A DNA stretch of 64,000 nt, taken from positions 137,948 through 201,947 of the forward strand of contig JBBTVD010000006.1 in NCBI GenBank assembly GCA_038063415.1, given 5' to 3'. This DNA comes from Patescibacteria group bacterium. Its GTDB lineage: Bacteria; Patescibacteriota; Microgenomatia; Levybacterales; UBA12049. Position 1 is the stretch's first letter. Each line of letters begins with the position of its first letter. Under the pieces are notes generated by a model. That model ran no database searches. It was not told where the DNA came from and saw only the letters and a program-made list of their open reading frames with translations. Made by a program: the position numbers and the translations under genes. Below are positions 3,384 to 62,696 of this stretch, piece after piece.

Positions 3384-4928
3384 TGGATTGTAGGGAACAA
3401 GCTTGTAGAGTGTACCTACTGCTACTGGCCACTCAGCAACGATCTCTGCACGACCAAAGCCGGCAATCTCCCATAATGAATTTCCAAGTGGCTCACAGGG
3501 TCCCTCACAGAGGACAAACAGCTGTGCTGTTGTCGTATCCCTTTTAGGATCGATAGCATCACTCTCAATGAGAACTGGGTCTTGCTTGTAATAAGAAAAA
3601 TAATAACGATAAGCATGATCAGAATTTCCACCGGAAAGCAATGCAAAGTTGAACGGTTTTCCTCCTGTTTTAGATAAAATAAACTGAGAAAGTTTTTGTA
3701 CCTGAATTTTCTGTTTGTGAGAGGGGTAGCGGAAAGGAGCATCAATAAGATTAAAAAGGAATAAGGAGAAAAACAGTACTATACTCAAAACCAAGCATAC
3801 TTTCTTTGTCCCTTTCTTTTTTCCCCAAGAAGAAAAAACAGAAAGTGCATTACCAACAAGAAGAAAAGGTAGTGGAAAAAGGATTACCATATGATAGTCC
3901 AAAATTTCTTTTTTATTAATACCAAAAAGGATAAGACTCATACTAAGCCAAAGGGATAAAAGCAAAGTAACGAGTTTATTTTTGATAAAAAGCATACCGA
4001 TGAGTGCAGCTAACCCCAGAAGAACAGCAGCCGTTAACCAAAGAAACAATGTCGTTTGTGGAAACATTGCTGAGATATCGGGCAATGGGTAATGGAAAAG
4101 TAGCCGACCAAATAAACGGAAGAATGCGTCGTATATGTGTCCAAAAAATGAACCATTGCCTTCATATGTTCCTCCTTGCAGCGTATCTCCAAAGATAAAA
4201 AGAAAGATTGCTTGCGTATTGGGGAATCCATGACGAACTTCAAAGGCAATAAAGGCGATAAATCCAATAAGAAAACCAAGAAATAACTGTGCATATTTTT
4301 TAAGATAGATTAGCAGTTGTATTTTTCGCTGTTGATACCAGAGACCGAGAGGAAGATAGACCACAACTATAGCAAAAAGAAATAACGAGAGATAATGCAG
4401 TTGGATTGCAATACCAAGCAAGAAGCCGGTTAGGATAACGTATCGATAAGATTTTACTGCCGTAATACTTTTATAGGTTGTATAGATAAGCAGCAAAGCA
4501 ACAAAGGGAAGCACATTGGGATTCCAGGAAGAGCGTGAATAATGAATTATTAAGGGAGAAACAGCATATAATGCTGCTGCCATAATCCCCGCTCTTTCAC
4601 TAAAAAAGCGTTTACCGACAAAATAGATAAGAAAAACGGTTGCTACACCGACAAGCGCAACCATCACAGCCGGCCCCACAGGATCGTACTGAAAAAGCCA
4701 AAGGAAGGGGGTAATCATATAATAATACGCTGGCCCCATGAAAAAATCTCCAGCAGAGGATCGTGGGCCAAGTAACGTGAGGTTACCTTCAAGTATTCCT
4801 TTGGCAATCAAAACATCTCGTCCTTCGTCGCCTAGAAAGGTCATATAATCCGAGATATTGTACAGCCGGAGAAAAGTTGCTAGCAGCAAAATACCAATAA
4901 GTAGGGCAAGCGATATTTTGTTTTTCAT
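3363..4928 (-). CDS. GT-C family glycosyltransferase (GT39/GT83, PMT/ArnT-like dolichyl- or polyprenyl-phosphate-sugar:protein/lipid glycosyltransferase)
   Basis: 521 aa and polytopic. It has a DE motif in the first extracytoplasmic loop (FLGDEGRDVLIAKG) and the YYYMITP...HYSRSSWNPN pattern typical of ArnT/PMT GT-C enzymes. Confidence 0.7.
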   Translation of the reverse strand: MKNKISLALLIGILLLATFLRLYNISDYMTFLGDEGRDVLIAKGILEGNLTLLGPRSSAGDFFMGPAYYYMITPFLWLFQYDPVGPAVMVALVGVATVFLIYFVGKRFFSERAGIMAAALYAVSPLIIHYSRSSWNPNVLPFVALLLIYTTYKSITAVKSYRYVILTGFLLGIAIQLHYLSLFLFAIVVVYLPLGLWYQQRKIQLLIYLKKYAQLFLGFLIGFIAFIAFEVRHGFPNTQAIFLFIFGDTLQGGTYEGNGSFFGHIYDAFFRLFGRLLFHYPLPDISAMFPQTTLFLWLTAAVLLGLAALIGMLFIKNKLVTLLLSLWLSMSLILFGINKKEILDYHMVILFPLPFLLVGNALSVFSSWGKKKGTKKVCLVLSIVLFFSLFLFNLIDAPFRYPSHKQKIQVQKLSQFILSKTGGKPFNFALLSGGNSDHAYRYYFSYYKQDPVLIESDAIDPKRDTTTAQLFVLCEGPCEPLGNSLWEIAGFGRAEIVAEWPVAVGTLYKLVPYNPSVSESE

Positions 4929-4932
4929 AATA

Positions 4933-6090
4933 CTAATTATTTTTCAAATGTTGTGTTTTCCAAATAATATAATTATAGATAAAGTAATTCATAGGAATAA
5001 TGATAAGAATAATAGTAGGCACAAGGATGATAAGTGAGGTTGGAACGTCATAGCCAAAAAGATATTGATGAGAACCTAAGAAATTTACGGCGAGATAGAC
5101 AACTCCACCTTGAGTGAAAATAGAAGCAAGAGAAGCAACATTAAACTTGATCAGACGATTAAAGAAATGGCCTTGCTCTTTGATATGTTTGGTATCACCA
5201 AATGTCCATGTGTTATTAATTAAGAAGTTAGAGAGGATAGCAACTTCCCCACCAATCATTGCTGCGATAAACTGTTCGGCACCTAGCTGGATGCTTACGG
5301 CTGTGGTAACCATTTGTAGAAAAAATCCCGTTCCTCCCGTAACAAGGAACTTAAAGAATCTCTTGTGGTCATAAATTCCAAGTCTCAGAACAACATAGAG
5401 CGATTCAAATTGATCACTCGTACTGATCTTACTTTTACCCTCTCCTCGTTCTTTAAAGACAATCGGCACTTCAACTACTTTTGCTTTTAGTTGTAAGATA
5501 TCATGGAGAATCTGCATTTTATAAGCAAAGGTATGAGACAGTAGATTATCGAGATCTATCTTACGCAGATAGCTAGACTTCGTTAATTTAAAGCCAGATG
5601 TGACATCATGAACAGTAAAATTAAACCAGACAACACGAGCCACCCAGTTTCCGACAACACTGAGAAACTTCCGATCAAATCCCCACTCTTTTGGAATGCT
5701 CCCTCCAGCGATGTATCTACTACCAATGACACAATCTGCTCCTTTATCCATTGCTGAAATAAGTCGAGGGATATCATAAGGATCGTGCTGAAAATCAGCA
5801 TCAAATTCCATAACGGCATCTGCTTGCATTTCTTTCATGGCATATTGCATACCACGGACATACGCTGCTCCCAAACCTTGTTTGGTTCCCGAAAGTAACT
5901 TAATCGTATGCCATTTGTGCATAAAAGCTTTTACCTCATCAGCCGTTCCATCAGGAGAAGTATCATCCACAATAAGCAGTGACACCTGATGGTTTTTAAT
6001 TGTTGGGAGAATTTCTTGTTGCAGAAGCGGAATCATCTTTCTGATGTTTTCCCGTTCGTTATAGGTAGGTAAAATAATAACAATCTTCAT
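4933..6090 (-). CDS. GT2 polyprenyl-phosphate glycosyltransferase (DPM1/Ppm-like) fused to a C-terminal GtrA-like membrane domain
   Basis: IILPTYNEREN...LIVDDTSPDGT...EFDADFQHDP is the DPM synthase-type GT2 signature. The C-terminal 120 aa has four TM helices of GtrA type. Confidence 0.75.
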   Translation of the reverse strand: MKIVIILPTYNERENIRKMIPLLQQEILPTIKNHQVSLLIVDDTSPDGTADEVKAFMHKWHTIKLLSGTKQGLGAAYVRGMQYAMKEMQADAVMEFDADFQHDPYDIPRLISAMDKGADCVIGSRYIAGGSIPKEWGFDRKFLSVVGNWVARVVWFNFTVHDVTSGFKLTKSSYLRKIDLDNLLSHTFAYKMQILHDILQLKAKVVEVPIVFKERGEGKSKISTSDQFESLYVVLRLGIYDHKRFFKFLVTGGTGFFLQMVTTAVSIQLGAEQFIAAMIGGEVAILSNFLINNTWTFGDTKHIKEQGHFFNRLIKFNVASLASIFTQGGVVYLAVNFLGSHQYLFGYDVPTSLIILVPTIILIIIPMNYFIYNYIIWKTQHLKNN

Positions 6091-15194: not shown

Positions 15195-15776
15195 TTACTC
15201 TTTCAGGGAAACTGCCCCTTGTCGAAGAATCTCCCACGGCTCAACAGCACAGTTAATAACGGTTGACGCTTCTTTGACAGTACATTCCCCCGGTAGAACA
15301 AAATCGACAAGTTTCATAAGTTCACGATCTAATCCCTCGATGCTATAGGGAGTTTGTTCTCCATGAAAATTTGCTGAAGGTCCAAGAAGAGGCACTCCTA
15401 CCCCCGCAATAAGTGATTGGGCTACCTGATGATTTGGCTGTCGGACACCCAAATTATTTCCTTCCCCCCGTACAAACTCCGACACTTTTTCTTTTTTGCA
15501 AGGAAGAACAATAGTCAGAGCACCTGGCCAATATTTTTCTAGCAAATCTCTTTTTACTTGTTCAGGAATTGGCAACAGATATGCCTGTGCCATAGCAATC
15601 CCACTGACAAGCACGGGTGTTGCTTGTGTTTTCGGACGTCGTCGCAGTCGAAAGAGACGTGTGATAGCCACTTCATTATCCATTCGACAGCCAATGCCAA
15701 AGGCCGTATCCGTGGGAAAAATACCCACACCACCCTGATTAAGAATAGTAATTGCCTGTTGTATTGTAATAACCAT
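15195..15776 (-). CDS. tsaC: L-threonylcarbamoyladenylate synthase (YrdC/Sua5 domain)
   Basis: ILNQGGVGIFPTDTAFGIGC...LRRRPKTQATPVLV...GALTIVLP...SANFHGEQTP are YrdC motifs. The start was moved to the ATG at 15776 (MVITIQQ), because the longer track ORF overlaps the GIY-YIG gene. Confidence 0.75.
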   Translation of the reverse strand: MVITIQQAITILNQGGVGIFPTDTAFGIGCRMDNEVAITRLFRLRRRPKTQATPVLVSGIAMAQAYLLPIPEQVKRDLLEKYWPGALTIVLPCKKEKVSEFVRGEGNNLGVRQPNHQVAQSLIAGVGVPLLGPSANFHGEQTPYSIEGLDRELMKLVDFVLPGECTVKEASTVINCAVEPWEILRQGAVSLKE

Positions 15777-15784
15777 AGTTATAT

Positions 15785-15849
15785 TGTCATCCTGAGCGAG
15801 CGAAGGATCTTGGCTAAAAAAGATTCTTCGGCAACGCCTCAGAATGACA
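15785..15849. repeat. 65-bp palindromic MITE-like element (TGTCATCCTGAG ... CTCAGAATGACA termini) between tsaC and the GIY-YIG gene
   Basis: 12-bp terminal inverted repeats with one mismatch, plus an internal GAAGGATCTT...AAGATTCTTC sub-palindrome. The right terminus encodes the last codons and stop of the GIY-YIG gene. Confidence 0.6.
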
Positions 15850-16123
15850 AAGAGAGATCCTTCCATTCAGAATTTCTAGATTCGATTAGAGAAACTTTTT
15901 TTATTCTTATCCACCCTTTCATTTTCTTTTCACTTGCTATTGCTTCATCTATTAATTGAAATTCTTCAAAGTATACTAACTTAGATACATTATATTTCTT
16001 TGTAAATCCTTCCACCAACTTATTTTTATGCTCATAAACTCTCCTTCTTAAATCATTCGTTACTCCAATATACAGAATCTTATTATTCCAGTTAGTAAGA
16101 ATATAAACCCAATATGATCTCAT
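15839..16123 (-). CDS. GIY-YIG nuclease family protein (UPF0213/YhbQ-like, stand-alone 94 aa)
   Basis: YWVYILTNWNNKILYIGVTNDLRRRVYEHK is the GIY-YIG motif (GIY...YIG...R...E). Confidence 0.75.
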   Translation of the reverse strand: MRSYWVYILTNWNNKILYIGVTNDLRRRVYEHKNKLVEGFTKKYNVSKLVYFEEFQLIDEAIASEKKMKGWIRIKKVSLIESRNSEWKDLSLSF

Positions 16124-17896: not shown

Positions 17897-17966
17897 GTCA
17901 TTCTGGCTTGTCCAGAATCCGTCATATGATCCTGGATGCGCTCGTACCTTGCTTACCAGGATGACG
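17897..17966. repeat. palindromic element copy (GTCATTCTGG-CTTGT-CCAGAATC hairpin plus CGTCATATGATCCTGG...CCAGGATGACG inverted repeat)
   Basis: Same TGTCATyC termini family as at 15785. The 23-nt hairpin is identical to 23917-23939. Confidence 0.55.
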
Positions 17967-23860: not shown

Positions 23861-23939
23861 TACGGAATCCATGGATTCCCGCTTTTGCTGGAATGACAAT
23901 TCTAAGTTTTTTATTCGTCATTCTGGCTTGTCCAGAATC
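23844..23939. repeat. composite palindromic element (TGTCATCCCG...GGAATGACA with internal 16-bp perfect palindrome GGAATCCATGGATTCC, followed by GTCATTCTGGCTTGTCCAGAATC hairpin)
   Basis: Termini are inverted repeats with one mismatch. The second hairpin is identical to 17897-17919. The element occupies the entire pabC-pabB intergenic region. Confidence 0.55.
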
Positions 23940-23950
23940 TTTTATTTAAA

Positions 23951-25375
23951 ATGCACAATAAAAAATTACCAATCTGGGTCGATCCCAAAGCAGTCTTTAC
24001 TGATCTTTTTGCCGCGGCTCCGGCAGCCTTTTGGCTTGATACAAGTCTGCCCAACGATGAAAAGAGATTCTCCTATATGGGCCTACCCAAAGAAATTATC
24101 TCCTACGACCTTCAAACTAATACAATAACCATACAGAAAGATTCTCACATCACAAAAATAACCCAAGATATCTTTACTTATCTCAATAGGAAGCTACAAC
24201 AACAGGCTTTTGAAGACAAAACACTTCCTTTTCCCTTTATCGGAGGATACGTCGGTTACTTCGGTTATGAATTAAAAGCACTCTGCGGAGTGAAAAACAC
24301 CTACCAGTCTCCTTATCCTGATAGTGTATGGTTCAAGGTTGAGCAATATATTGTCTTTGACCATCAAGAAAAAGAGGTTTACCTTGCTTGTCTAACAAAA
24401 AAAAAGCAACTTGCAGACAAATGGTTCCAGGACATACAAAAAAATTTATTGTCATCCCGAGTACCCCATAGAAAGTCGAGGAATCTCACACCGCAGAGAA
24501 ACTTGTTTGCAACAGACCCCTCCACTCGTTCCTCGGTCGGGATGACATTTTCCCGTGAACAACAACAATATCTTAAGGACATACAAACAGCTAAAAAATA
24601 TCTTAACAAAGGAGAAAGCTATCAAATTTGTCTTACCAATACCCTTACCAAAAAAGTAACAATTGACCCCCTTCTTCTTTATCAAACGCTGAGAAAAAGT
24701 AACCCTGCTCCGTATGCTGCGTATCTTCGCTATAATGATCTCACCGTTCTCTGCTCTTCTCCCGAACAGTTTCTCAAAATTGATGCAGGTGGAACAGTCA
24801 CAACCAAACCAATCAAAGGAACAATAGCTCGTGGTAATACCTTGCAAGAAGATATCTTGCTTAAAAAACAACTCGCAGAAAGCAAAAAGGACTGGTCAGA
24901 GAACGCTATGATTATTGACTTACTACGAAATGATCTGGGGAAAGTATGTACGTTCGGTTCGGTAAAAGTAACAAAACCAATGGCAATAGAGACGTATCAA
25001 ACAGTACATCAACTTGTTTCAACGGTACAGGGCAAATTACATAAGGATACTTCAGTTATTGATTGCATCAAAGCCTGCTTTCCCGGCGGATCAATGACCG
25101 GAGCGCCAAAAACACGAACAATGGAAATTATTGAAAAATTAGAAAAGCAAGCACGAGGCATCTATTCTGGAGCACTTGGATTTCTTAGCTACAATAAAAC
25201 AGCGTCACTGAACATCGTTATCAGGACGATGGTCATGCAAAAAGATGCGGTAAGTATTGGCGCTGGTGGAGCCATTTTGATTGATTCAGATCCAGAGAAA
25301 GAATATGAAGAAATGCTACTCAAAACAACAGCTTTACAAAACGCGATTCAAAATTCTTTAGAGAGTGAGGAATAA
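23951..25375 (+). CDS. pabB: aminodeoxychorismate synthase component I
   Basis: Chorismate-binding domain blocks SYQICLTN, PEQFLKI, TKPIKGT, DLLRNDLG and FPGGSMTGAPK. It carries an in-frame ~33-aa insert at residues ~167-200, encoded by a palindromic element. Confidence 0.8.
   Translation: MHNKKLPIWVDPKAVFTDLFAAAPAAFWLDTSLPNDEKRFSYMGLPKEIISYDLQTNTITIQKDSHITKITQDIFTYLNRKLQQQAFEDKTLPFPFIGGYVGYFGYELKALCGVKNTYQSPYPDSVWFKVEQYIVFDHQEKEVYLACLTKKKQLADKWFQDIQKNLLSSRVPHRKSRNLTPQRNLFATDPSTRSSVGMTFSREQQQYLKDIQTAKKYLNKGESYQICLTNTLTKKVTIDPLLLYQTLRKSNPAPYAAYLRYNDLTVLCSSPEQFLKIDAGGTVTTKPIKGTIARGNTLQEDILLKKQLAESKKDWSENAMIIDLLRNDLGKVCTFGSVKVTKPMAIETYQTVHQLVSTVQGKLHKDTSVIDCIKACFPGGSMTGAPKTRTMEIIEKLEKQARGIYSGALGFLSYNKTASLNIVIRTMVMQKDAVSIGAGGAILIDSDPEKEYEEMLLKTTALQNAIQNSLESEE
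24450..24547. repeat. 98-bp palindromic MITE-like element inserted in-frame inside pabB (perfect 11-bp terminal inverted repeats TGTCATCCCGA / TCGGGATGACA)
   Basis: The termini are exact reverse complements. It belongs to the same terminus family as the elements at 15785 and 23844. The pabB reading frame stays open through it. Confidence 0.6.
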
Positions 25376-25469
25376 ATTTTTTCGCAGTGATCAATAGTGA
25401 AAAAATGATTCGGTAAAGATCTATAAAAGTTACTGCACGTGGAGCACAAGAAAAAATTTCATTCCGAAC
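25365..25469 (+). repeat. copy 1 of a ~100-bp direct repeat (GTGAGGAATAAATTTTTCGCAnTGATCAATAGnGAAAA ... CGTGGAnCAnAAGAAAAAATTTCATTCCGAAC), spanning the pabB stop and the folK upstream region
   Basis: The 5' ~40 nt and 3' ~35 nt are near-identical to copy 2 at 25969-26069, and the centre is divergent. It contains the pabB stop codon. Confidence 0.6.
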
Positions 25470-25514
25470 GACAACGCTAATGACAAAAAGCATCTAAGTC
25501 CCTATAATACCACC

Positions 25515-25979
25515 ATGCACACAATCTATCTCGCTCTTGGATCCAATGTCGGAAAAAAAGCAACATTTCTTACCCAAGCAATTGACAAGCTAAAAAAACA
25601 ACTGCAAAACGTGACGCTAGCAGATTTCTATACAACCCAACCAATGTATGTGGAAGATCAAGAAGAATTTTTAAATACAGTGATGCGGGCGGAGACATCT
25701 CTCTCTCCTGAATCACTCCTTACCTTTGTTAAAGGTCTGGAAAAAGAAATCGGAAGAAAAGAACGATTTCGGAATGGTCCCCGTGAGATTGACATCGACA
25801 TTCTTTTTTATAATGATGTGATTATGCACACAAACTTATTGCAAATTCCTCACCCTCGGATACAGGAACGAAACTTTGTTCTTCGACCTTTTATGGATAT
25901 TGCTCCAGAGTTTATGCATCCAGTGCTAAAAAAAACAATAAAAGAGATTTACAAAAAATTAAATATGCGTGAGGAATAA
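25515..25979 (+). CDS. folK: 2-amino-4-hydroxy-6-hydroxymethyldihydropteridine pyrophosphokinase
   Basis: IYLALGSNVG...REIDIDILFY...RPF is the HPPK pattern. Confidence 0.8.
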   Translation: MHTIYLALGSNVGKKATFLTQAIDKLKKQLQNVTLADFYTTQPMYVEDQEEFLNTVMRAETSLSPESLLTFVKGLEKEIGRKERFRNGPREIDIDILFYNDVIMHTNLLQIPHPRIQERNFVLRPFMDIAPEFMHPVLKKTIKEIYKKLNMREE

Positions 25980-26069
25980 ATTTTTCGCAATGATCAATAG
26001 CGAAAAGAATGGTAGTATGAGTAGTAAAGCATCTACGCGTGGATCATAAGAAAAAATTTCATTCCGAAC
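25969..26069 (+). repeat. copy 2 of the ~100-bp direct repeat, spanning the folK stop and the upstream region of the CofE-like gene
   Basis: See copy 1. It contains the folK stop codon (MREE* versus pabB ESEE*). Confidence 0.6.
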
Positions 26070-26084
26070 AGAATCCTAACGACG

Positions 26085-26825
26085 ATGATTGTAAAACCAT
26101 ACAAAACACATAAAATAACACCAAACGAAAATTTGTTTGAGATTCTCGATCGCTATTTGCCAAAAATTGAGGAAGGCAGTATCGTCGCAATTGCCTCAAA
26201 AATTGTCGGTATTTGTGAAGGGAGAGTGAGCAAAAAAGAATCACAAGAACAAAAGGACGAATTTATCAAACAAGAAGCGGAGTACTACTTACCAGAAAAA
26301 CATATGGAACTCCTACTGACGATTAATCACAATACCCTCGTCGTAAATGCAGGTATCGACGAATCAAATAGCAATGGCTTGCTTTCTCTCTGGCCTAACG
26401 ATCCACAACAAAGTGCCAACGTTATTCGCGAATATCTTAGCAAAAAATATAACATACAACGGATTGGCGTTATCCTAACTGACAGCAAAATAACACCACT
26501 TCGTTGGGGAGTTACCGGCTACATGCTAACACATAGTGGCTTTTTAGCATTAAAAAATTATATTGGCAAACAAGATATCTTTGGACAAACTATGCACGTC
26601 GAGCAAGCAAGCATTGCCGATTCTTTGGCAACGGCTGCAGTAGCTGTTACCGGTGAAGGTGATGAACAACAACCATTGGCAGTAATAACTGATGTTCCTT
26701 TTGTGGAGTTCCAACAACGAAATCCTACACACGAAGAATTGGAAGCACTCAAGATAACTCTTGAAGATGATGTCTATGCACCACTCCTCAAAGCAGTCAT
26801 CTGGCAAAAAGGGAAACAAAAATAG
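26085..26825 (+). CDS. CofE-like (F420-0:gamma-glutamyl ligase family, COG1478) protein; candidate FolC2-type dihydrofolate synthase/folylpolyglutamate ligase
   Basis: 246 aa with the CofE-like layout (IASKIVGICEGR, NAGIDESN, GVILTDSK) in a folate operon. Established knowledge: CofE homologs (FolC2) substitute for FolC in some bacteria. The functional assignment here is inference. Confidence 0.45.
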   Translation: MIVKPYKTHKITPNENLFEILDRYLPKIEEGSIVAIASKIVGICEGRVSKKESQEQKDEFIKQEAEYYLPEKHMELLLTINHNTLVVNAGIDESNSNGLLSLWPNDPQQSANVIREYLSKKYNIQRIGVILTDSKITPLRWGVTGYMLTHSGFLALKNYIGKQDIFGQTMHVEQASIADSLATAAVAVTGEGDEQQPLAVITDVPFVEFQQRNPTHEELEALKITLEDDVYAPLLKAVIWQKGKQK

Positions 26826-62540: not shown

Positions 62541-62696
62541 AGATCTTACCTTTAAGTTGATCCATCGCGATTTTGACAGCTCCTTTTAAGAAACTGATAA
62601 TAGCGTAGATAATAAGATTGATAACTTTATAGACAGTCGGCCAAATCTTCTCCAAAATAAGTATTACTTTAGATTTTTGTCCGTTTTCTTCCATAG
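62541..62696 (-). CDS. possible 51-aa small membrane protein whose stop overlaps the deoA-like start (TAATATG)
   Basis: Hand-found ORF MEENGQKSKVILILEKIWPTVYKVINLIIYAIISFLKGAVKIAMDQLKGKI. Confidence 0.2.

Follow-up and report, generated by a model that had tools for sequence, protein, structure and literature searches.

A palindromic repeat in three homologous copies, two of them flanking folK in a folate operon of a Patescibacteria group bacterium

The 64,000-nt stretch of DNA analyzed here (hereafter the window; contig JBBTVD010000006.1, positions 137,948 to 201,947, of a Microgenomates-like Patescibacteria group bacterium) carries a folate operon in which two copies of a repeat of about 100 nt, A and B, lie on either side of folK, in the order folP-folB-folE-pabC-pabB-A-folK-B-cofE-like. 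We report that the repeat is a fold-back element, and that it occurs in three homologous copies whose paired positions covary. The three genes adjoining A and B are all on the forward strand: pabB (23951..25375), encoding aminodeoxychorismate synthase component I (Pfam PF00425 and PF04715); folK (25515..25979), encoding HPPK (PF01288); and a CofE-like gene of the F420_ligase family (26085..26825; PF01996), relatives of which are named DHFS/FPGS in some JGI annotations. Copy A occupies 25365..25469 (105 nt) in the pabB-folK interval and copy B 25969..26069 (101 nt) in the interval between folK and the CofE-like gene, both on the forward strand and with a start-to-start spacing of 604. The two copies score 135 and 126 bits, respectively, with R1, a covariance model built from A and B only.

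An earlier note on this DNA had described direct repeats of about 100 bp around folK that overlap the upstream stop codons, have conserved ends and a diverged centre, and stop 15-45 nt short of the next start; all of this is borne out. The mean column identity of A and B is 87% over 111 columns, or 78% when the flanks are included, and the 64 kb contains exactly two occurrences each of GTGAGGAATAAATTTTT, TTTCGCARTGATCAATAGYGAAAA and AAGAAAAAATTTCATTCCGAAC, where shuffled sequence predicts 0.00-0.01. Both copies start with GTGAGGAATAA, which encodes the final codons and TAA of pabB (...ESEE*) and of folK (...MREE*). The pabB stop (TAA, 25373-75) is thereby located within copy A and the folK stop (TAA, 25977-79) within copy B. 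From the end of the palindrome to the next start codon there are 45 nt before folK (25515) and 15 nt before the CofE-like gene (26085). The two copies differ at 17 of 27 central columns, compared with 8 of 78 basal columns (Fisher p = 2e-7). Beyond the palindrome, A (GACAACGCTAATGAC, 25470..25484) and B (AGAATCCTAACGAC, 26070-26083) share a non-palindromic tail on the forward strand with 10 of 15 positions identical. The elements, 96-105 nt long, have no conserved open reading frame (ORF), and their antisense and mini-ORFs differ from copy to copy. Because the sequence is identical, with zero differences, in four further assemblies from the same groundwater population, the repeat pair is not an assembly artefact. 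As a separate observation, pabB is present as two ORFs (170 and 277 aa) in one assembly of that population (L015 875-2291, compared with 23951-25375 of the window), the two loci differing by 10 mismatches and 1 gap, through either strain variation or assembly error.

The conserved 5' and 3' blocks are mutual reverse complements, a relationship that the earlier note had overlooked. Since the two conserved ends are complementary, each copy is an imperfect palindrome of 101-105 nt that, whether RNA or single-stranded DNA, can fold into a single long hairpin with interruptions. Predicted RNA folds reach -24.9 kcal/mol for copy A (z = -3.4) and -23.2 kcal/mol for copy B (z = -3.2), and the two-sequence RNAalifold consensus comprises the helices P1 (16 pairs), P2 (5-6 pairs) and P3 (3 pairs). 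The anatomy of the element is thus one of 19-20-nt terminal inverted repeats, a 16-bp closing stem, a conserved 3x2 internal loop (GCA/AA), two short inner helices and a variable apex. P1 is formed by GGAAUAAAUUUUUC with GAAAAAUUUCAUUCC plus two outer pairs, and all 16 of its pairs are standard in both A and B. The upstream stop codon is held in its 5' arm. In copy A this arm is the left terminal inverted repeat, GTGAGGAATAAATTTTTTC (25365..25383, +), which contains the last pabB codons and TAA, and the 3' arm is the right terminal inverted repeat, GAAAAAATTTCATTCCGAAC (25450..25469, +), the reverse complement of the right end reading GTTCGGAATGAAATTTTTTC. In copy B, the 5' arm (25969..25986, +) contains the last folK codons and stop, and the 3' arm spans 26050..26069 (+). 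P2 is built from GTGATC (25387..25392, +) and GAGCAC (25442-25447) in copy A, and from ATGATC (25990-95) and GATCAT (26042-47) in copy B. P3 pairs GTG (25397..25399, +) with CAC (25436-25438) in copy A and GCG (26000-02) with CGC (26036-38) in copy B.

Substitutions between the copies respect this fold. Four of those from A to B in paired columns make exactly two compensatory pairs, 25387/25447 (G-C to A-U, in P2) and 25398/25437 (U-A to C-G, in P3), and a fifth, at 25390/25444, turns an A.G mismatch in A into A-U in B. By our own combinatorial estimate, the probability that four random substitutions among 48 paired columns would yield two pairs is ~0.001. Because divergence at the hairpin base is low and the changes there are compensatory, we infer that the base is under constraint. 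An intrinsic terminator was considered and rejected: the stem is AU-rich and is followed by CGAAC with no U-tract, and no terminator-like site was found at either copy when 25300-26100 was scanned.

The earlier note had suggested a search for further copies and a covariance model of them. With 10 kb past each window end taken from the same population, ~84 kb was scanned in all. R1 identified a third, diverged copy, C (L019 5561-5662), which is full-length, in the A/B orientation, ~3.8 kb past the right end of the window and ~42 kb from A and B (27.5 bits, E about 6e-4); it gave no further match in the window or in relatives. About 65-70% of positions in copy C are identical, and its global alignment with copy A has 68 identical positions (z = 7.0), a value that none of 2000 shuffles reaches and that is orientation-specific. 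The terminal inverted repeats of copy C are a matching pair of its own (GTGCTGAATGTAC.../...GTACATTCAGCAC), and its arms differ in sequence yet pair perfectly (GUGCUGAAUGUA...UACAUUCAGCAC). Across A, B and C, both members vary in eight pairs, and the share of paired cells is 92%; sliding the partners lowers it to at most 53%, and none of 500 shuffles attains it. The fold is conserved among the copies. A three-copy model (R2; A, B and C), run with filters off over the 84 kb and six related loci, added no further copy. The remaining model matches are weak (9-15 bits) and fall within coding sequence; after inspection, those at 16064-16115 and 62550-62638 were rejected. Copy C is situated in the divergent alaS/rmuC interval, 22 nt 5' of the rmuC ATG and upstream of a promoter-like site of that gene (TGnTACAAT-6 nt-ATG). 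Given its position ahead of this site, copy C is probably not part of any mRNA.

A stable fold (z about -3.3), conserved internal loops with covarying helices, and two copies within a folate operon would all be expected if a cis-acting RNA structure, whether a riboswitch or a site of protein binding, regulated folK and the CofE-like gene according to a folate-pathway signal. THF-I, THF-II (the folE motif) and ZTP are structured RNAs tied to folate genes, and THF-II is a rod-like hairpin with internal loops. However, Rfam gave no match at gathering score on the whole window and none at E up to 10 on 25200-26300, these three families included, in agreement with the statement of the earlier note that the repeat does not resemble the THF or ZTP consensus. 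Rfam searches of the relatives' loci returned nothing relevant. Unlike THF-I, THF-II and ZTP, the element is intercistronic rather than in a 5' leader, and it is not conserved in relatives: covariance models found no counterpart in the folate loci of seven related lineages, where the genes are fused, overlapping or separated by other spacers. No terminator or start-site-sequestering platform was detected, copy C is outside any folate context, 5' of rmuC and ahead of its predicted promoter, and the known copies are confined to one genome. Sequestration of a Shine-Dalgarno site by the hairpin was also rejected, because the genome hardly uses such sites. Of the small structured RNA proposed in the earlier note, the homologous copies with a conserved fold are supported; regulation specific to folate has only a slim chance of being correct.

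Relatives of the element were also sought more widely. An exact pattern of the core motif had five matches among GTDB genomes, a collection that excludes the window's own genome; they lie in unrelated phyla, and since none scores with the covariance model they are regarded as chance matches. JGI metagenomes and IMG/VR had 0 matches to the terminal-repeat pattern, no plasmid or phage sequence matched by BLASTN, and a protein-guided search for the locus in metagenomes returned one distant locus only, which was uninformative.

Comparison with the operons of relatives bears on how the repeat arrived. Among the nearest PabB homologues, roughly 21 in number, about 17 have PabB fused to HPPK (576-643 aa), and the fused pabB-folK ORF was seen directly in the loci L001/L002, L003 and L020. 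In L011, pabB and folK abut with a 7-nt gap, and in L004 cofE begins 5 nt after folK; junctions in the relatives are 0-7-nt gaps or overlaps, and a ~100-nt spacer of A/B sequence is found in no relative examined. Because pabB and folK are fused or abutting in most close relatives, copy A is part of a 142-nt insertion (25361..25502, +), which runs from the ...NSL codons of pabB to a conserved TATAAT and is extra in the window when this is set against L001, L003 and L020 (fused ORFs) and L011 (abutting genes).

The repeat-gene-repeat layout had also raised the idea, in the earlier note, that the repeats were left behind when folK entered the interval between pabB and the CofE-like gene as a cassette. 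We give this practically no credence, as the relatives examined that carry pabB have folK at this very position, joined to pabB in one frame for the most part and otherwise abutting it, and the -10/start region of folK is conserved across relatives. Since the relatives have folK at the same place, it is the repeat, and not folK, that is the insertion. A tandem duplication of folK with its spacer, followed by deletion, was rejected as well; two events would be needed, and the supposed linker duplicate is not convincingly similar. Two further observations concern the relatives' loci. The folK-cofE spacer of L003 (1145-1261) is an unrelated, GC-rich sequence of 117 nt in which GUGGGU...ACCCAC may form a closing stem; Rfam has no match to it, and its fold is marginally better than those of shuffles (z = -1.9). 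In L012 and L013, the CofE-like gene has no adjacent de novo folate genes and is instead accompanied by Vut_1 transporter-family and DHFR/RibD_C genes, a gene set that suggests folate salvage rather than synthesis.

The folK-cofE spacer of L001 can be aligned with the right end of copy A and the tail that follows (p = 0.002). As L001 shares part of the spacer at the B position, part of the folK-cofE spacer sequence is old, and from this match and the 15-nt tail common to A and B we infer that the B position came first and that the folK-cofE spacer unit was the source of A. Such a history could amount to a local segmental duplication and nothing else, in which illegitimate recombination or template switching copied the folK-cofE spacer (B plus tail) once into the pabB-folK junction, the repeat being neither mobile nor functional. 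A and B are 604 bp apart, in one orientation and with a common non-palindromic tail of 15 nt; part of the B-position spacer is common to L001, and no target-site duplication accompanies the copies, all of which favour a local event. It does not account for a homologous copy C ~42 kb away in an unrelated intergenic region. In addition, A and B have diverged very unevenly and with compensatory substitutions in the stems, neither of which neutral decay predicts. We consider a purely local duplication unlikely, although it deserves to be kept in mind.

The insertion also alters the sequence ahead of folK. The hexamer TATAAT (25503..25508, +), an ancestral -10 element, lies 6 nt 5' of the folK ATG in leaderless geometry, and a -35-like ATGACA (25480..25485, +) straddles the end of the shared tail of copy A (25470-25484) and unique insert sequence. 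ATGACA-17-TATAAT is the best promoter-like match in 6.2 kb (11/12). TATAAT or TATACT, 6 nt and ATG are kept before the HPPK Met in the window (25503-25517), L001 (5476-5490), L003 (674-688), L004 (5519-5533), L011 (4807-4821) and L020 (4387-4401), whether the genes are fused or not. Fusions translate the conserved hexamer as Tyr-Asn or Tyr-Thr, and in L011 the pabB stop codon lies inside it. A reading of 'YNTT' 5' of folK as a relic of a fusion linker was revised accordingly, as this is the -10 box conserved in fused and unfused relatives. Because the hexamer is conserved in fused ORFs, the PabB-HPPK fusions appear to contain an internal leaderless promoter, which could be an additional source of free HPPK. 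In L001 and L003 we read a matching -35, TTGATG, at 18-nt spacing inside pabB codons. In the window, the ancestral folK -35 has been shifted 142 nt off by the insert and ATGACA now stands at 17-nt spacing; the resulting candidate hybrid promoter, with its -35 from the insert and its ancestral -10, would presumably fire.

Over the whole window, Shine-Dalgarno-like motifs were found at 8 of 57 gene starts. By comparison, -10-like hexamers peak exactly 6 nt before the ATG (10/57 genes, folP and rmuC among them, with a background of about 2.7 per offset and 20 within offsets 5-7). This peak suggests widespread leaderless mRNAs and, taken with the rarity of Shine-Dalgarno motifs, marks TATAAT-6 nt-ATG as a probable local signature of leaderless promoters. 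No promoter-like site for the CofE-like gene lies inside copy B, and no conserved internal promoter is common to both copies. The promoter or untranslated-region cassette that the earlier note supposed folK and the CofE-like gene to share is thus contradicted, since the promoter-like site follows copy A only, is a hybrid, and has no equivalent at copy B. What remains of a duplicated promoter is that the A insert supplies folK with a candidate -35 element, which it does not share with copy B. A literature search on leaderless mRNAs or MITEs (transposable elements of the miniature inverted-repeat type) in Patescibacteria found nothing directly relevant.

Hairpin repeats of another family occupy the same niche. 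Short GC-rich hairpins of the form GTCATTC...GAATC belong to the SRM/NTS/dRS3 type (SRM, Ssn-related motif), which has been described together with Ssn single-stranded DNA (ssDNA) nucleases (PMC11893778), and four of them are present in the window (0.13 expected), at 15822-15848 (-), 17897-17919 (+), 23874-23897 (-) and 23917-23939 (+); two are identical (GTCATTCTGGCTTGTCCAGAATC). Two of the four fill a 90-nt pabC-pabB spacer that is absent in L001 and L003, where these genes overlap or are fused. The published SRM pattern, HGTCWYN(0-2)YYVSBRHN(0-5)WNVSBRGN(0-2)RNCYNB, matches 23871-23898, L019 6900-6927 (inside alaS) and three sites in L020, and has no match in A, B or C. In L020, the closest PabB relative, SRM hairpins at 2895-2922 and 4851-4936 occupy the pabC-pabB and folK-cofE junctions, and these (TGTCAT..GGGGATCTAG / ..GGGAATCTAG) supply the TAG stops of pabC and of the pabB-folK fusion. 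The folK-cofE spacer there forms an 84-nt composite hairpin (z = -4.7). With SRM hairpins at junctions in both the window and L020, the junctions of the folate operon have been colonised repeatedly by hairpin repeats, and by more than one family of them.

SRM/NTS-type hairpins (15822-15848 (-) and about 15790-15815) lie right at the 3' end of a 94-aa ORF with a single GIY-YIG domain (15839-16123, -; Pfam E = 2e-16). This ORF is the same size as SsnA of N. meningitidis, with the conserved Tyr/Tyr/Glu offset by one position, and together with the hairpins it likely represents a Patescibacteria system of the Ssn type, made up of an ssDNA nuclease and its repeats. For the Sua5/YrdC-like gene downstream of this ORF (15195-15866), the annotated N-terminus probably consists of translated repeat. 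Within alaS (L019 6900-6964, ~2.5 kb past the window end), two SRM hairpins in inverted arrangement lie in frame and are translated as VIPAKAGIHEETGSPIKLGMT; we read this pair as an in-frame repeat insertion in an essential gene, similar to those of Rickettsia palindromic elements (RPEs).

Given an Ssn-like ORF in the same window, an excess of SRM-type hairpins (4 versus 0.13 expected), and their presence at equivalent junctions of the window and L020, there too giving stop codons, A, B and C might be a long-form or derivative target of such a system, and their ends (GGAAT...CATTCC) do echo SRM arms. We think this improbable. The published pattern is unmatched by all three copies, which are 100 nt rather than 20-50 nt long and are missing the GTC upstream motif, and their GGAAT/ATTCC duplex has the reverse of the polarity seen in SRM hairpins. 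Chance could account for the 5-7-mers in common, and A and B, at least 9 kb from the GIY-YIG ORF and ~100 nt in length, fall outside the 20-50-nt definition of ssn-flanking hairpins.

The explanation that we favour, with modest confidence, is that A and B belong to a low-copy family of palindromic (fold-back) repeats resembling MITE, ERIC and Correia elements. Copy B would have been in the folK-cofE spacer first, and copy A with its 15-nt tail would have been copied later into the pabB-folK junction, the family presumably propagating through hairpin DNA intermediates. In the present sequence, pabB takes its last codons and a UAA inside the 5' arm from copy A, and folK stands apart from pabB. 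Transcribed copies would fold into long interrupted intercistronic hairpins, whose most likely role, as in ERIC and Correia elements, would be that of a stem-loop bounding or stabilising the mRNA or marking it for processing. ERIC/Correia-type elements are known to provide promoters and RNase III/E sites and to form 3'-end and in-frame insertions (PMC10969869, PMC2649163).

Several observations weigh against a mobile repeat family with these consequences. Three copies in about 84 kb, two of them 604 bp apart, leave mobility a presumption. Inspection of the termini of A, B and C revealed no target-site duplication. What A and B do share in their flanks is a tail of 15 nt on one side, and this extension of similarity beyond the palindrome fits a segmental copy of the spacer equally well as transposition. 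No autonomous element or transposase with matching ends was found, the end sequences occur nowhere else in the 84 kb, and there is no homologue of the family in any other genome searched. The alignment behind the covariation counts with copy C had been fitted to the model. In this AT-rich region, the total of promoter-like sites is what chance predicts (14 versus 14.2 expected).

A more speculative proposal, to which we attach a low probability, is that the conserved hairpin base is a functional intercistronic module peculiar to a translation system with few Shine-Dalgarno sites and many leaderless mRNAs, or else a new class of long Ssn-like nuclease substrate. As a module, the fold would bring the upstream stop, in the 5' arm, beside the downstream start, which in copy B is 15 nt past the 3' arm. 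Such proximity could allow re-initiation; alternatively, a processing site could release a near-leaderless downstream mRNA.

If A and B are palindromic repeats of the kind favoured above, the locus offers a clear, datable case of a small repeat remodelling an operon in a reduced Patescibacteria genome. The repeat ends pabB with its own stop, parts two enzymes that form a single protein in the majority of the closest relatives, and is placed so that a promoter may be rebuilt from insert and old sequence, an apparent gene fission accompanied by apparent promoter rebuilding. Elements of this kind are well known; the sequence family had no match in the searches made. For annotation, it follows that gene ends in such genomes (...EE*, ...AKAGI*) can be repeat-derived. 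Should the hairpin have a role as RNA, it would bear on the expression of internal cistrons in organisms with few Shine-Dalgarno sites.

Among known systems, the Correia elements (CREE) of Neisseria and the ERIC elements of enterobacteria are able to contribute outward promoter elements and to introduce RNase III/E sites into mRNAs (PMC10969869, PMC2649163). Like these elements of about 100-150 nt, the repeat described here is non-coding, has terminal inverted repeats, folds as a whole into one long imperfect hairpin, and is sited at gene boundaries and transcribed spacers. Unlike these, it has three copies in 84 kb rather than tens to hundreds per genome, and it shares no sequence similarity with them; any promoter or RNase site in it is putative. 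Correia elements duplicate TA, whereas no target-site duplication is visible in A, B or C, and the same lack separates them from MITEs, which they otherwise resemble in being non-coding, shorter than ~500 bp and bounded by terminal inverted repeats. SRM/NTS/dRS3 repeats and neisserial NIME arrays are likewise hairpin repeats clustered around genes in a repeat-gene-repeat layout (PMC11893778). The GGAAT/ATTCC arm motif is the sole feature that A, B and C have in common with SRMs, from which they differ in pattern, in length (100 nt versus 20-50 nt), in the opposite polarity of the motif and in having no GTC upstream motif, and genuine SRM hairpins and an Ssn-like gene are present in the same genome. 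The RPEs of Rickettsia offer a further parallel, as palindromic repeats of a small, reduced genome that lie in or at the ends of coding genes and join the reading frame (PMC10969869). RPEs are usually read through in frame, whereas the A/B element has a stop in the frame that is entered, so that it would truncate and split the gene instead of extending the protein.

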